This document shows positions 56,472-63,283 of a DNA stretch of 64,000 bases, piece after piece. The notes under the pieces were generated by a model. It made no database searches and was not told the origin of the DNA. It worked only from the letters and a program-made list of their open reading frames with translations. The stretch comes from Promethearchaeota archaeon (GTDB lineage Archaea; Asgardarchaeota; Thorarchaeia; Thorarchaeales; Thorarchaeaceae), in the NCBI GenBank assembly GCA_014728035.1, contig WJMJ01000018.1, positions 64,001-128,000 of the forward strand. Reading direction: 5' to 3'. Both the position numbers and the translations under genes were made by a program. Positions within the stretch are counted from its first letter, which is position 1; each line of letters begins with the position of its first letter.

Positions 56472-58139
56472 GTGGCAGCAGAACAGTACCTAATTGTAGG
56501 TGTTTTAATAATTGGTACAGCTCTAGCAAAAATATCTGAGAAATACCGTCTTCCATATCCCATTCCATTGATTATTGCCGGAATGGTTCTGGCTCAGGCA
56601 TTACCAGGAGAAGGAATTCCTGAAGCTTTAGGGCTAGAATTCATCGCACAGTTGACACTTGCAACTGTATTGTTCTATGCGGGCCTTACCATGAATTTGC
56701 GAGAGCTTAGACTGTCACTTCCTGTTGTAGCTGCACTCGCTAGTGTAGGAGTACTAGCCACTTCAATCATTGCAGGCGGAGCAATTTTCTTGGCTTTCTC
56801 TGGAATCGGACTTGCAGCTTTCTTAATTGGAGCTATTCTTTCTCCTACGGACCCTGCAGCTCTGTTTTCAGTTCTTGAGTCTGGAGGGGTGAGAGTGAAA
56901 AGGAAGATTTACTCTATTTTGGAAGGTGAAGCAGTATTCAATGATGCAACTTCTGTTATCTTGGTAATTACTGTCTTCGAGCCGATTGTAGCTGTAAATC
57001 TGATTGGAGACCCCAGCCTTGCTCAACCATGGTGGATTATCCTAGGGCAATTTGTAGGAAGTATAGTTTTTGGTGTTATCATTGCATATGGTATTGCACG
57101 CTTCATCGGAATGGTAATTCTTCGTGATGCAGATCCAACTAACATCGCAATTCTTACTGCAGCAACACCAATTCTAGCTTATGGTACTGGAGAACTGCTA
57201 ACCTTTCTAGGATTCCATCCAGGAGCTATGGCTGCAGTATTTACTGGAATCTTCATGGCAAACGCAAAAATGGTCGGTCTAGATGTATTACCTCAACAGT
57301 CAATGCGAAATACCACTAAGAATGTATCATTTGCATTTGAAATTGTAGTCTTCATTCTTTTGGGTTATACTGTCAATCTAAGTTTTATCACAGGAGTATT
57401 TGCAGGTACACAGGTTCCTGTTCTCCTAGTAGGTTCAGTCGTGGCAATTTTGGTCATCTTCGTGGCAAGACCAATCTCAGTGTTTTTGATTACCGCACCA
57501 GATAGAAAAATGACTTGGAAAGATAGATTCTTTATTAGCTGGGCAGGAGTAAAGGGAGTTGCAAGCGCAGCTCTAGCTGCCATTGCAGTTTCTGTATTAG
57601 TGCATACTATTCCTGAAGGAACACCACAGGTGATAATAGACCAAGTAACAACAGCTGCAGATACTATTACTGGAATCGTGTTTATTGTCTTAATGATTAG
57701 TCTAGTGCTACAAGGAATTACAGCTCCACTATTCGCAAAGAAACTAGGTCTCGAAGAAGAACAGGATGCCTTTGATGAAATCTCTGCAAAGCGAAATGCC
57801 ACAAGGCATGCACTACTAAGACTGGTAGATGAATATACAGAAGGGAAAGTTGATTCTGAATTATACAGAATTCTCAAAGCAGAACTGGAAGAAGAGATTT
57901 TCCAATTGGAAGACGAACTAAGAAAAATGGTTCAGGAAAAACGAGCCCGTCTAATGGAAATCTCTATTCGTGAAGAGATTTGCAAAAGCAAGTTGTCATA
58001 CTATGAAGAACAGTATGAGAAGGGAAAGATACCTGAAACTGTCTATGATGACAGAAAAGACGAGATTGAAGCAGAGATCAATGAACTCTCTGTTATGCGG
58101 AAACACTGCGCCGAGGGAAAAATAGATCCCATCGATTAG
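56472..58139 (+). CDS. CPA1 (NhaP-type) cation/H+ antiporter with a cytoplasmic coiled-coil / SHOCT-like tail
   Basis: GAILSPTDPAA, LEGEAVFND, ARP and WAGVKG motifs; tail with two G(K)(V/I)xxxxY repeats. Confidence 0.9.
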   Translation: MAAEQYLIVGVLIIGTALAKISEKYRLPYPIPLIIAGMVLAQALPGEGIPEALGLEFIAQLTLATVLFYAGLTMNLRELRLSLPVVAALASVGVLATSIIAGGAIFLAFSGIGLAAFLIGAILSPTDPAALFSVLESGGVRVKRKIYSILEGEAVFNDATSVILVITVFEPIVAVNLIGDPSLAQPWWIILGQFVGSIVFGVIIAYGIARFIGMVILRDADPTNIAILTAATPILAYGTGELLTFLGFHPGAMAAVFTGIFMANAKMVGLDVLPQQSMRNTTKNVSFAFEIVVFILLGYTVNLSFITGVFAGTQVPVLLVGSVVAILVIFVARPISVFLITAPDRKMTWKDRFFISWAGVKGVASAALAAIAVSVLVHTIPEGTPQVIIDQVTTAADTITGIVFIVLMISLVLQGITAPLFAKKLGLEEEQDAFDEISAKRNATRHALLRLVDEYTEGKVDSELYRILKAELEEEIFQLEDELRKMVQEKRARLMEISIREEICKSKLSYYEEQYEKGKIPETVYDDRKDEIEAEINELSVMRKHCAEGKIDPID

Positions 58140-58792
58140 TAAGAGGCTTTCTTGTAAATATCAGGTATACGAATGCCAGTCTTGCCATTGAATACATCAC
58201 GTAAGAGTTCAAAGTGCTCATCCAAATCTTTTAGGAGTTTTTCCAGAGCATTTGGTTCGATATTCGGTTCTGCAGTCCAGATGGTGAGATAATTACTCAC
58301 AACACCAAGCTCGACACCACCTTCTTCTAAGTCTCTGAAAATGGTAATCTTAACTAGGAACTCTGCTTCGAACATATCCAATACTTCATGAACACTTATG
58401 ATAATCAAGTCAAGAAATCCAATAAGATCTTCAAGTACTGGAGATTCTTCTATACTTCCCCGAAGTGATTCTGTAAAGGTCTGAATGGTAGAAGCTCGTT
58501 GCTTAAGAGTTTCAAACATCCTCATCAATTTTGAGAATTCTTTGATTGAAGATTCAAGCGCTGGTACCAATTTGTCAAATAAATTCACAAGGAGTTTACC
58601 ACGAGCATTTTCACGGATATTGTGATATCCATCGAGTTTGCCCAAGGGGCCATCAAGATGTTCAATCTGAACTAGAGTGTTTGTTACGGCTTGTACTGAC
58701 TTGACTGAGCTCCGTTGAATTTTTGACCAACGTTCGACAAAAGTGTCGATACCTTCACGCAAGTCTTCAAGTATTTCTAACTCTCTGGCCAA
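58136..58792 (-). CDS. CINP/C1orf109-like helical protein (eukaryotic signature-like)
   Basis: ERWSKIQ...N, then VHEVLDMFEAEFLVKITIFRDL...SNYLTIWTAEPNIE, matching the CINP C-terminal pattern M(Y/F)xxExxxK...YLxxWxxxP; TTG start with GGAG SD. Confidence 0.6.
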   Translation of the reverse strand: MARELEILEDLREGIDTFVERWSKIQRSSVKSVQAVTNTLVQIEHLDGPLGKLDGYHNIRENARGKLLVNLFDKLVPALESSIKEFSKLMRMFETLKQRASTIQTFTESLRGSIEESPVLEDLIGFLDLIIISVHEVLDMFEAEFLVKITIFRDLEEGGVELGVVSNYLTIWTAEPNIEPNALEKLLKDLDEHFELLRDVFNGKTGIRIPDIYKKASY

Positions 58793-58885
58793 TGATATTT
58801 CTCCATTCTTACCAATGTATTACAACATATAACTCATTCTGCGTTGGCATTGTTGTGTCACTGATAGGGAGTCGTTTTTTTCAAA

Positions 58886-61360
58886 TTACGAAATCCCAGA
58901 TGTATCAACATCACCTTTAACTCTTCCAAACACAGCACGCAGAACGTCAACTCCGCCAGTAGCAGCACCGACAACATCACCAGTGAATAGAGATAGAAGG
59001 ACGTTAGCAGCTTTTGCTGGTGTACTCGTCTTCTTCTTCAAATCTTTCACACGGGTAGAGAAACTATGCCATAGCTCACGAGTGGTCCCTCGTTCAAGTA
59101 CACCCTCTTCTTCAAGTGCTTTGATTAGATTCGAGCCAACTTGGCCTTCTGTTGCGAATCCACATACCAAATCTAATGCTTCTTTTGCTTGTGGATCGTC
59201 AACTGAACGTTCCATTAAATCGACAAATGCGCGTGTTGTAGATTCAACAGTATCAAAGAGGTCGAGGAGCTTAATCTTCTGAATAGCAGACAGGTCCGAT
59301 TCGAGAGTCAAGTCGATAGTCCGCTCAATATCACTAAAATCAACAAACGAAAGGTCTCTACCTTTTAGACTGTGTTTCATTGAATCTGTTACACTAGTAA
59401 TCATTCCTATGAATTTGTTACCTTGAATGACCTTCAAGATATTCTGAACCGTTTTACGTTCATCTTCTGAGAGAATTGTTTCGTTTGTTTCTAGACTGAG
59501 AAGGAAGTCTCTGAAATTAGGTTCAAACATTTCCATCTCCATTTTCAACCGGTCTATACTCTTCCGACTCTTTGATTCGTAGGTAAGACTTTCTTCCTGA
59601 TTTACGTAGACAAGAGTAGAGTATTCTATAGCTTGTTTCCAAACAGGTTCGAGGGTGTTATCAAGAATCCCTTTTGCTAGCACGGAATCAATCTTCTCCT
59701 CATAGAATTGCTGCAATTCATCATCTAATTCCTTTTTTCGTGCGATTCTGCCACGTTCGAGCAAAGCAACGTGATTCAAAAGTAGGAGAATGTCAAACTC
59801 AGTTGGTTCAGAGCCGTTTTCTGTGATGATAGATAACCCTTCAAAGAACCGGACAATTTGTTCATGAGAGAGGTTGTTCTCAAAAGCTACCTCACCCAAA
59901 GGTGTGAGATGAAATTCATTATCTTTCTTCTCAACAAGTGGACGATTCATCTTTATCATTTGCTTAAGTACACGAGAAGTTGAACTCTTTTTATAGAACA
60001 TTCCAAGTCGCTTTGAGAGTTTTTTCCTCTCACTCTCAGTCTTCATAAGACCTAGACCTATTTGACCCAATAATATCTTGGAGAGTTGACTGTTATTGAG
60101 AAATCTAGTAGGAAGTTTCGGAGAAGAATACACACGTTGTAATTCACCTACATCAGTGATGCTCTTAGTAAAGACGGTGCAATCTCCAGCTCTGCCTTTT
60201 CCACGACGCATCCGCACAGCTCGTGCCATCATAGACTGTCTAAATATTTCATCAATCCCAGGAGCGCTCATCACAACATGTGATACGGGGGTATTCACCC
60301 CGTAAGCTAGAGCTTCAGTTCCAAACAGAAAACGGATATATTTTCGCCGAAATGCCCATTCAATGAACCATCTCTGTGCTTCATCCATCTGTCCGTGATA
60401 ACAACCGATTCCTTGTTCTACTTGAGTGTAGCTCGGATATTCTAATTCCTTCAATACAGCAGATACTTTCTCAAGACGTTCACGAATAATATGTTCAACA
60501 TCAAAAGATACAGCCTCCCCAAGTTCTGATCCTTTCTCTTCAACAAAGTTATTTATCTGATCAATCGAGTTCACATATACCAAGGTTCTTGTGCCATCAT
60601 CTGCCAAGTCAAGTAGATGTTCTGCGAACTTGGTATGCTTCTCTTTAGTACTCTTGTAATTAATCAATCGAATGTCAGGAGGATCGTATTCTTTCTCATC
60701 AATGATCAATTTGACTCCAAAAGCTGTTTCAAGCCGAGTCGGTTCATCAAACTGAGCAGAAAGAATAAGGATACGAGGAGAGGGAGTCATTTGATTCTTT
60801 GCAAATTTCATGATTTCAAAAAGCATAGGGCCTCTTACAGGGTCATGAATAATGGAATGCGTATCATCAGAAACAAGTACTCGGAGGTTTCTAGAAAGAA
60901 GCCATTCTCTGGTCTCCTGCATTCTAATCATATCAAACATAGCATCTGGAGTTGCAATCAATACATTTGGAGAAAATCCCTTTGACAACTGGAGAATTGA
61001 ACGATTTTCGCGTATTTCACCAACTACAACCATTGGACGTAAGAACCATCCAAAAAATTGACTCAGTGTCGCCGAAGTATCTCTTGCTGAAGCATGGAAT
61101 GGAGCTAGAATAATCGCTAACTCATTTGATTCACTATCAGGTGTTTCCTCTTTTCGTTTAGAAATAGCTTGAAATAGCTCATTTGCAATCAGCAAACCTC
61201 CAGCAAAACTCTTTCCGGTCCTAGACATAGATACAATGCCGAAATCACCATCAGTGGTATACAATCCAGAGTCTGCTGCAATTCTCTGGACCTCATTCAG
61301 TCTTTTGATTCCCAAAGCTTCAGAAATCTTAGCAAGAGACGGTTCAAGAACTTCAATCAT
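58886..61360 (-). CDS. Ski2/Hel308-like SF2 helicase with degenerate catalytic motifs
   Basis: Q-motif GIKRLNEVQ; I SRTGKS; II DDTH; RGP; III LSAQ; YHGQM; V TEALAYGVNTP; VI QSMMARAVR; LTPLG winged helix. Confidence 0.8.
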   Translation of the reverse strand: MIEVLEPSLAKISEALGIKRLNEVQRIAADSGLYTTDGDFGIVSMSRTGKSFAGGLLIANELFQAISKRKEETPDSESNELAIILAPFHASARDTSATLSQFFGWFLRPMVVVGEIRENRSILQLSKGFSPNVLIATPDAMFDMIRMQETREWLLSRNLRVLVSDDTHSIIHDPVRGPMLFEIMKFAKNQMTPSPRILILSAQFDEPTRLETAFGVKLIIDEKEYDPPDIRLINYKSTKEKHTKFAEHLLDLADDGTRTLVYVNSIDQINNFVEEKGSELGEAVSFDVEHIIRERLEKVSAVLKELEYPSYTQVEQGIGCYHGQMDEAQRWFIEWAFRRKYIRFLFGTEALAYGVNTPVSHVVMSAPGIDEIFRQSMMARAVRMRRGKGRAGDCTVFTKSITDVGELQRVYSSPKLPTRFLNNSQLSKILLGQIGLGLMKTESERKKLSKRLGMFYKKSSTSRVLKQMIKMNRPLVEKKDNEFHLTPLGEVAFENNLSHEQIVRFFEGLSIITENGSEPTEFDILLLLNHVALLERGRIARKKELDDELQQFYEEKIDSVLAKGILDNTLEPVWKQAIEYSTLVYVNQEESLTYESKSRKSIDRLKMEMEMFEPNFRDFLLSLETNETILSEDERKTVQNILKVIQGNKFIGMITSVTDSMKHSLKGRDLSFVDFSDIERTIDLTLESDLSAIQKIKLLDLFDTVESTTRAFVDLMERSVDDPQAKEALDLVCGFATEGQVGSNLIKALEEEGVLERGTTRELWHSFSTRVKDLKKKTSTPAKAANVLLSLFTGDVVGAATGGVDVLRAVFGRVKGDVDTSGIS

Positions 61361-61415
61361 AAGCGTGCGCTCCACTACTGAGGGATAATCAGAAGGAAAT
61401 AAAGATTGCCCGAGA

Positions 61416-61955
61416 TTAAGACAATCCTAATTTCAAGAGATCAGATCTTGTGATTATTCCACTTAGCCTTCCTTGATTCAATAGCAATACTGCTTGATGC
61501 AAGTCGAATAAAGGGAGTATTGAATCAATTGGAGTACTTTCATCAATCCTTGGAGGTCCACTAGTTTCAACAACAGCTTCCACGGATATTTTAGATGCAT
61601 CATGCTGTAAGTTTCTGATAATGTCCCTCTCTGTAATCATGCCAACAATTCTACCCGTGCGTACCACTGGTAACTGTGAGTACCCATATTTCTGCATCAC
61701 CTCAATAGCATTTGCAACGCTTTTTCTAGCATCGATAGTTTTAGGATTAGCAGTCATTATCTCTAAGCATCTGATTGTTCTTGACTTTGTAAGATAGTCC
61801 ACAATCTTGTTTACCAGAGATAGTTTAGGATCCAGGGAGCCTTTTTCCATTCTTGCAATGTATGCCTGTGTCACACCTACCGCTTCAGCTAAATCGAGTT
61901 GAGTAATATTTGCCTCTTCTCGCAGCTTTTTGAGATCTTCTTTTGTGATTAACAC
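61416..61955 (-). CDS. XRE-HTH plus CBS-pair transcriptional regulator (COG3620-like)
   Basis: LKKLREEANITQLDLAEAVGVTQAYIARMEKG..DP; CBS motifs YSQLPVV, GMITERD and GIITRSD. Confidence 0.92.
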   Translation of the reverse strand: MLITKEDLKKLREEANITQLDLAEAVGVTQAYIARMEKGSLDPKLSLVNKIVDYLTKSRTIRCLEIMTANPKTIDARKSVANAIEVMQKYGYSQLPVVRTGRIVGMITERDIIRNLQHDASKISVEAVVETSGPPRIDESTPIDSILPLFDLHQAVLLLNQGRLSGIITRSDLLKLGLS

Positions 61956-62016: not shown

Positions 62017-62083
62017 AGTATCCAAAGATATTTAACGGTTTAGTAGCGGCACCAAAGGAAAGCACTAGTATAAGGTGACTGTA

Positions 62084-63283
62084 ATGCAATTGAAAGTTAC
62101 ACGCGGTGACGGAAGACCCGTTACAAAGAGAGAAGTTGAAATCGTAGAAAGAAAAGGAAAAGGTCACCCAGACACGCTATGTGACAAAGCAGCTGAAGAA
62201 CTGTCAGTACGTCTGAGCGAATTCTACCTTGAAAAATTCGATAGAGTCATGCATCATAATGTTGACAAAGTGTTACTTGTTGGTGGACAATCAAATGCCA
62301 GATTTGGTGGCGGAGATGTCATTGAGCCAATCTATTTGTTACTCAGTGGTCGAGCTGTTGATGTCGTTGATAGAGATTATGAGCGTCAGGTCCCAGTAGG
62401 AAAGTTTGCAGTAGAACACACAAGACAATGGCTAAGTGAAGACCTACCACACCTTGATGTGAATTCTGACCTAATTGTAGATTACAAAATACGTGCGGGA
62501 AGTACAGATCTAGTTGGAAATTTCGATCAAGATATTGAAGTTCCAAAAGCAAACGATACTAGTTTTGGAGTTGCATATGGGCCATACTCAGCAACTGAGA
62601 AAGTTGTCCTAGAGTCTGAACTTCTATTGAACTCGGAAGCTATCAAGAAAAAGTACCCCCAGATTGGAGAAGACATCAAGGTAATGGGTACACGTGTTGG
62701 AAAGAAACTGCACCTTCAGGTCGCAGCTGCAATTATCTCTACAGAAACCAAAGATGCAGATGAATATGCCAGTGTAATGGACGCCATTACCAGTGAAATA
62801 ACAGACCTTGCAGTGAAACTGACAGACTTGGACATAGAAGTTGCAGTCAACACAGCAGATGTACCTGAAGAAGATTTGTACTATCTAACTGTAACAGGTA
62901 CTTCAGCCGAACATGGAGACGACGGCCAAGTTGGTAGAGGAAATCGTGCAAATGGTCTCATCACGCCATATAGACCCATGACTCTTGAAGCTGCAGCTGG
63001 TAAGAATCCAGTATCTCACGTTGGGAAAACCTACAATGTAGCAGCTAGCGAAATTGTAGAACGTGTTGTAAAAGAGCACCCCGACATCGAGCAAGTTTAC
63101 TGTTATCTCGTTAGTCAGATTGGTGCACCCATCACCGAACCACAAGCGGTTAACATTGAGCTCTACGGTGACTGTGATGTTGAAAAGATTCGAAAATCAG
63201 TAGAGAGTATCTCGGAAGAAGTCATTGCAAAACTACCCAAGGTCTGGGAAGGCTTTGTTAAGAGAAAATTCCAGCTATGGTAA
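62084..63283 (+). CDS. mat: S-adenosylmethionine synthetase, archaeal type
   Basis: [45 protein letters not shown] and [10 protein letters not shown] motifs; AGGTGA SD before ATG 62084. Confidence 0.97.

Follow-up and report, generated by a model that had tools for sequence, protein, structure and literature searches.

A probable Thorarchaeal member of the Asgard CINP-like family and its relation to the eukaryotic unfoldase adaptors CINP and C1orf109

A stretch of 64,000 nucleotides (nt) from a Thorarchaeal genome (Promethearchaeota archaeon, GenBank assembly GCA_014728035.1, contig WJMJ01000018.1, positions 64,001 to 128,000), called the window here, encodes a small helical protein that we refer to as CINPL. 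It very probably belongs, as a Thorarchaeal representative, to the Asgard CINP-like (CINPL) family. Sequence profiles and a full-length match of the predicted fold indicate homology to eukaryotic CINP and, at a looser level, to C1orf109. Both of these proteins cap the SPATA5-SPATA5L1 (55LCC) AAA+ unfoldase. That unfoldase is needed for 60S maturation and replisome turnover and is mutated in human neurodevelopmental disease.

The core finding, an Asgard relative of CINP, is already known. Köstlbacher et al. (bioRxiv 10.1101/2024.07.03.601958, July 2024; Nat Microbiol, March 2026, PMC12962969), in the passages dealing with CINP, report homologues that among prokaryotes are confined to five major Asgard clades. 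A first-pass annotation of the window, made from the letters alone, had cautioned that such proteins were already reported, and the preprint and the paper bear this out. Beyond these, a full-text literature search turned up no paper that connects Asgard archaea with CINP. The even-handed relation of the Asgard family to C1orf109 is a modest refinement.

The gene and its elements lie as follows (window positions):
58136..58792, minus strand: CINPL coding sequence, 218 amino acids (aa) plus stop, a five-helix bundle (based on the list of open reading frames, homologues, the structure model, CINP profile matches, and selection and composition)
58792-58790, minus strand: TTG start codon
58801..58804, minus strand: Shine-Dalgarno-like GGAG, 8 nt before the TTG
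58827..58832, minus strand: TTATAT, TATA-like box, ~35 nt 5' of the start codon
58727..58729, minus strand: codon of W22 in helix 1 (family alignment)
58613..58660, minus strand: loop between helices alpha1 and alpha2, residues 45-60 (Thorarchaeota and family alignments)
58259..58393, minus strand: CINP-like C-terminal signature, residues 134-178 (phmmer and hmmsearch alignments to human CINP, family alignment)
The start codon, the GGAG element and the TTATAT box were read from the sequence.

The open reading frame (ORF) of CINPL is a genuine gene and not a chance ORF, because it has 146 homologue clusters at an identity of at least 68% and a ratio of nonsynonymous to synonymous substitution rates (dN/dS) of 0.013. 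All named clusters are Thorarchaeota-type proteins from metagenome-assembled genomes (MAGs), annotated as 'hypothetical'. The dN/dS value, obtained against an orthologue from the same genus, reflects strong purifying selection; dN was 0.10-0.22 across the family, in which synonymous sites are saturated. In the alignment, the first residue of the homologues is the same as that of the 218-aa ORF. The protein is acidic (~25 kDa, isoelectric point 4.9, net charge -12). The spacer between an upstream helicase-like gene and CINPL measures 93 nt and contains the TTATAT box, which suggests a putative promoter for CINPL itself.

Relatives of known structure were sought in the Protein Data Bank (PDB) with phmmer for single sequences and with hmmsearch for profiles. 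The Thorarchaeal protein alone matched four human CINP chains over residues 73-182 (E 0.013-0.023), and the next match had an E of 1.1. The parallel between its C-terminus and human CINP, which the first-pass annotation had drawn, was thereby reproduced independently. The Thorarchaeota profile detected human CINP at E 6.9e-4, over residues 72-184 only. With a profile of the non-Thorarchaeal Asgard members, the match to human CINP had 40.6 bits (E 1.6e-9) and spanned positions 5-178 of 207, with collinear motifs: the helix-1 W, I-x2-M-Y-E-x-E-L-x-L-K and Y-L-x-x-W-x-x-x-P-Y-x-E. CINP chains came first, well ahead of unrelated matches, whether the PDB sequences were searched with the Thorarchaeal protein, the Thorarchaeota profile or P0145.

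The AlphaFold2 (AF2) model of CINPL, built from a 21-sequence alignment (pLDDT 84.8, pTM 0.78), is all-helical; its five long helices span residues 2-46, 57-111, 120-156, 162-173 and 180-201. The all-helical 218-aa protein that had been annotated at 58136-58792 was thus confirmed, with the exact ORF. The best Foldseek matches of the model were CINP and C1orf109 chains; among the top chains, CINP had a Z of 15.4 (root-mean-square deviation (rmsd) 3.8, 188/196 aligned). When the model was compared exhaustively with 48,161 PDB representatives, CINP took rank 1 (Z 14.2, rmsd 3.1, 167/174 aligned). The resemblance to CINP noted in the first-pass annotation is real.

De novo designed helical bundles reached Z 13-15.6 in the structural searches (13-14 in the exhaustive search with the CINPL model), close to the scores of CINP and C1orf109. 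Because they score nearly as high, the fold match corroborates homology but cannot alone establish it. The same chance scores, together with the weak single-sequence E of 0.013, are what could be said for convergence, that is, for an unrelated Asgard helical bundle that merely resembles CINP. We consider this very improbable, given the full-length profile match with its collinear motifs and the leading place of CINP chains in the PDB sequence searches. Moreover, a Pfam model and a language-model search, described below, independently indicate the same eukaryotic complex.

Three conserved features were noted. W22 is the sole residue invariant in 21/21 aligned family members, the eukaryote-type CINP P0146 included. 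In the alpha1-alpha2 loop, H45, G48, G51, L53 and R60 are invariant among Thorarchaeota CINPL, and L53 is nearly so family-wide. The C-terminal signature reads H-x3-L-x-M-[FY]-E-x-E-x-L-x-K ... Y-L-T-I-W-x-x-E-P-N-I-E, and its I137, M140, E142, W172, E175 and P176 are nearly invariant over the whole Asgard CINPL family. In humans, CINP and C1orf109 each have five helices and together make a T-shaped dimer on the SPATA5 N-domains, and it is the alpha1-alpha2 loop of C1orf109 that makes the T-contact with CINP (PMC12019325). We infer that the 45-60 loop of CINPL is equivalent to this T-contact loop. By analogy with the human heterodimer, contacts may be made through the 45-60 loop and the C-terminal W-x2-E-P region.

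The link to C1orf109 came from other kinds of evidence. The best Pfam match of CINPL was PF15011 (C1orf109-like), over residues 19-102 (E 1.2e-3). The first-pass annotation had noted that the N-terminal half recalls C1orf109, and the position of this match agrees with it, although at 19.2 bits against a gathering cutoff of 27 the match is sub-threshold. Some Thorarchaeota orthologues of CINPL carry a precomputed PF15011 match, and eleven other Asgard representatives exceed the cutoff with 35.3-54.5 bits over nearly the whole model. By comparison, P0146, with 89 bits to human CINP, scored only 26.4 bits with PF15011. A language-model search of the ESM Atlas gave eukaryotic 'C1orf109 homolog' clusters as the nearest to CINPL (0.94); with PF15011 clusters excluded, only unnamed eukaryotic clusters below 0.9 were returned.

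Structural comparison also included C1orf109. It ranked fourth for the CINPL model among the 48,161 PDB representatives (Z 12.9, rmsd 4.3, 184/202 aligned), and the ranks between CINP and C1orf109 were held by de novo designed bundles only. A Hodarchaeota-type member, P0134, was folded as well (pLDDT 86.6). Its top 7 Foldseek matches were all 55LCC adaptor chains. By Z, C1orf109 (Z 16.0, rmsd 3.7, 190/202 aligned, 18% identity) shared first place with CINP (Z 15.7, rmsd 3.0, 167/174 aligned, 15% identity). The C1orf109 Z values for CINPL and for P0134 are within ~1 Z unit of those of designed bundles. We read the Asgard family as a bridge between CINP and C1orf109; on the C1orf109 side, the link comes from the Pfam model, from the fold and from the neighbours in the language-model search.

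Occurrence of the family was determined by an exhaustive HMM (hidden Markov model) search of 1.84 billion representatives and by a survey of 400 Asgard genomes. The HMM search returned 27 clusters; every prokaryotic one with a named source was Asgard, many were unnamed, and P0146 was of the eukaryotic CINP type. The named non-Thorarchaeal members came from Hodarchaeota, 'Asgardarchaeia' and Promethearchaeota MAGs, and the Thorarchaeota profile matched them at E 2e-29 to 6e-4. The longest member had 244 aa, and no fused form was found in this search, which had no length limit. CINPL was present in 130/400 Asgard genomes in a family-specific pattern: 79/85 in the family of the window's own genome; three others had 21/22, 17/19 and 5/5, and the largest sampled family had 0/135.

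The gene is essentially always single-copy in the 130 positive genomes, extra matches being fragments at contig ends, and a search of the window's own 4.3-Mb genome at E<=10 gave no second family member. No pair of a CINP-type and a C1orf109-type gene occurred in any of the 400 genomes. In a tree of 30 family members, the Thorarchaeota clade was separate from the Hodarchaeota-type clade. The placement of P0146 in this tree was disregarded, as its branch was 4.55 long and joined to another long branch. In the CINP passages of Köstlbacher et al. (PMC12962969), eukaryotic CINP is sister to Hodarchaeales. The lineage closest to eukaryotes is not the Thorarchaeota clade.

In plants, too, CINP-type and C1orf109-type adaptors both work with SPATA5-type ATPases (PMC12332008). 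Because the two families are present in animals and in plants, they date to about the last eukaryotic common ancestor (LECA). A single-copy Asgard gene that preceded a duplication in stem eukaryotes is the simplest reading, because no Asgard pair exists in the survey and both families go back to about LECA. We lean slightly towards CINPL being of a type older than the CINP/C1orf109 duplication. The single pre-duplication ancestor suggested in the first-pass annotation agrees with the single copy, with the links to both families and with the equal distance of P0134 from them; it is not demonstrated, since human C1orf109 was never matched directly by the Asgard profiles and the Thorarchaeota clade is not the nearest to eukaryotes.

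CINPL may instead be an orthologue-type relative of CINP only. The origin of C1orf109 would then be separate or far older, and its resemblance to CINPL would come from a generic five-helix bundle and from composition. In favour of this, and against an even-handed kinship, human C1orf109 was never matched at E<=10 by the Thorarchaeota profile, the non-Thorarchaeal profile or single sequences, with C1orf109 chains present in the PDB library, whereas Asgard profiles reached human CINP at E 1.6e-9. CINP is also the better structural match for the Thorarchaeal protein, the C1orf109 score is nearly equalled by designed bundles, and the published sister position of Hodarchaeales concerns CINP. Other results do not fit a kinship with CINP alone: the eleven Asgard representatives above the PF15011 cutoff outscore a bona fide CINP (P0146), C1orf109 is the top structural match for P0134 with an identity of 18-20% (15-17% for CINP), and the Atlas neighbours of CINPL are C1orf109 clusters. 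Nor did the 400 genomes hold a second Asgard paralogue that could be a separate ancestor of C1orf109. We regard a CINP-only relationship as rather unlikely.

A bolder version of the pre-duplication view is that the ancestral form already capped an archaeal Cdc48/VAT hexamer as a homo-oligomeric helical lid, in a family equally ancestor-type of C1orf109. We find this improbable. If true, a 55LCC-like, adaptor-guided unfoldase would predate eukaryotes and act on a substrate other than Rlp24, and the label 'CINP homologue' would understate the family.

How CINPL might act was considered from the human complex. CINPL would most likely self-associate, because a single archaeal gene stands in place of the eukaryotic CINP/C1orf109 heterodimer. 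Each 45-60 loop would then contact the helical side of a neighbouring copy, in the way that C1orf109 packs on CINP. Such an oligomer could then dock on the N-domains of one of two VAT/Cdc48-type ATPases and serve as a substrate-selecting lid. Two Cdc48_N-bearing ATPases in the window's own genome, on contigs C25 and C79, are possible partners. Rlp24 is the established eukaryotic substrate of the SPATA5-type complex. A PF01246 search of the own genome found one eL24 gene only and no Rlp24-type placeholder, so the substrate of CINPL would not be Rlp24. The whole explanation, a CINPL-family member that self-associates into a Cdc48/VAT N-domain lid for another substrate, falls in our judgement a little short of even chances; the role as a Cdc48 adaptor, proposed by analogy, is held tentatively and is somewhat doubtful.

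No computed result links CINPL to an AAA+ ATPase in archaea, and several observations lend such a lid no support, the missing Rlp24-type placeholder among them. Both local ATPases are generic VAT-like and not SPATA5-like: they are closest to Thermoplasma VAT (824-849 bits), then to p97, with SPATA5 well behind, paralogue A being slightly higher to SPATA5 (630 vs 581 bits). The copy number of Cdc48_N proteins does not correlate with CINPL across the phylum, with two in Thorarchaeota and 3-5 in a large family that lacks CINPL (f22) and that may include the cultured Lokiarchaeia. An ATPase gene beside CINPL was not found in any Asgard lineage examined. Human CINP and C1orf109 are each monomeric alone (PMC11055677), and self-association of an ancestral type is thus not a given. 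A complex prediction of two CINPL copies with the N-domain of Cdc48 paralogue A gave ipSAE values of 0.01 and 0.06, the mark being 0.32, and speaks neither for binding nor against it.

The gene model of Cdc48 paralogue A (L024:1300-3555, minus strand, contig C25) deserves a remark of its own. The TTG of its longest ORF lies ~20 codons before the alignment start of 45/45 family orthologues, and translation probably begins around residue 19-22.

The surroundings of CINPL suggest a different possible partner. The neighbouring genes in the window are:
58886-61375, minus strand: relative of Ski2/ASCC3/Brr2-like helicases, 829 aa (Pfam DEAD and Helicase_C, and a C-terminal region of ~430 aa without a family)
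61416-61955, minus strand: regulator with HTH_3 and two CBS domains
62075-63283, plus strand: S-adenosylmethionine (SAM) synthetase
56472-58139, plus strand: Na+/H+ exchanger with a charged coiled-coil C-terminal tail of ~130 aa
55808-56461: PhoU-like gene, preceding the Na+/H+ exchanger

The best PDB relatives of the 829-aa helicase-like protein were ASCC3, Slh1 and Brr2. Its gene occurred in 11/86 genomes of the window's own family (4 genera, 47-85% identity), and in all 11 of them it lay directly upstream of CINPL and co-oriented with it. The slot is constant: the helicase-like gene stands between the HTH-CBS regulator and CINPL, in a conserved block to which the SAM synthetase also belongs. 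The adjacency is weak evidence for a functional link, because this pattern fits one ancestral arrangement with repeated loss. As a functional link it was therefore downgraded to inherited synteny with repeated loss, CINPL persisting without the helicase.

These data bear on an alternative in which CINPL belongs to the same family but acts in archaea as a small helical scaffold without an AAA+ ATPase. Its partners would then be others, such as nucleic-acid or ribonucleoprotein (RNP) machinery, in some Thorarchaeota possibly the Ski2/ASCC3-like helicase, and the pairing with SPATA5 would be a later recruitment. The only recurrent neighbours of CINPL, the CBS-HTH regulator and the always upstream, co-oriented helicase-like gene, fit a scaffold, as do the identities of the helicase relatives and the lack of ATPase linkage or co-occurrence. 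CINP was also originally described as a replication and checkpoint interactor, as cited in the CINP passages of PMC12962969. Against this, the helicase is missing from 75/86 family genomes while CINPL is retained in 79/85, so CINPL is independent of it, and its fixed slot is what an ancestral arrangement with loss would leave. The helicase was not found beside CINPL outside the window's own family. Furthermore, the sole experimentally established, structure-solved role of the eukaryotic homologues is on SPATA5-type ATPases. We regard an ATPase-free scaffold as a rather unlikely explanation.

Other features of the locus were recorded. The block of HTH-CBS regulator, SAM synthetase and CINPL is syntenic in the Thorarchaeal family and its sister family (L020, L021, L056-L071). 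In most cases the HTH-CBS gene has the same orientation as CINPL, and in the window a terminator-like hairpin follows it at 61428-61402. On the other side, the stop of the Na+/H+ exchanger overlaps the 3' end of CINPL by 4 nt, the two genes being convergent. The exchanger and the PhoU-like gene are conserved CINPL neighbours in several Thorarchaeota genera.

Outside Thorarchaeota, no CINPL neighbours common to the Asgard lineages were found: CINPL stood next to phosphoglucomutases in f14, HypF and an RNA cyclase in f30, and a protein of 714-730 aa in f11. In f14 (L018, L022), it sits within an unusual array of three paralogous phosphoglucomutase/phosphomannomutase genes of 459-470 aa. The conserved 714-730 aa protein adjoins CINPL divergently in three Hodarchaeota-type genomes of one genus (L016:7348-9489, plus strand; L023:7390-9579, plus strand; L017:4027-6186, minus strand). 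It matched no Pfam family at E<=1e-5 and is not Cdc48 despite its similar length.

An Asgard relative of CINP shows that the 55LCC adaptor fold predates eukaryotes, a point already published. The present analysis sharpens it slightly, in that the Asgard protein may be a common ancestor-type of both adaptors. It also raises a second question, suggested by analogy, whether archaeal Cdc48/VAT may have a helical lid adaptor.

Compared with the published Asgard proteins, the CINPL of the window belongs to the same family, and in both cases the family is Asgard-only among prokaryotes. It differs in clade, being Thorarchaeal and apart from the Hodarchaeota-type clade that the CINP passages of the published work place beside eukaryotic CINP. 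In those passages the five clades are not named, and C1orf109 appears only in a reference title.

With human CINP (PDB 8cih, 9gwj_B, 8rhn_C, 9lgo_J), CINPL has in common its length class, its five-helix architecture, the helix-1 W and the motifs of the last two helices, at ~15% identity. By our reading of the alignments, human E147, which contacts R84 of SPATA5, aligns to the hydrophobic I131 of the Thorarchaeal protein. Human CINP pairs with C1orf109, whereas archaeal CINPL has no C1orf109-type partner gene. C1orf109 and its plant counterpart OPENER (PF15011, CA109-like) represent the best Pfam family for CINPL, with a conserved alpha1-alpha2 loop and a possible full-length fold match; the distance is that CINPL stays below the PF15011 cutoff and that no Asgard profile matches human C1orf109 directly.

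The third known system is archaeal VAT/Cdc48 (Thermoplasma VAT, PDB 5g4f), of which the two candidate partners in the window's own genome are close homologues. Archaeal Cdc48/VAT is usually regarded as cofactor-free, and we are aware of no helical lid adaptor reported for it. If CINPL does bind VAT/Cdc48, it would be the first.

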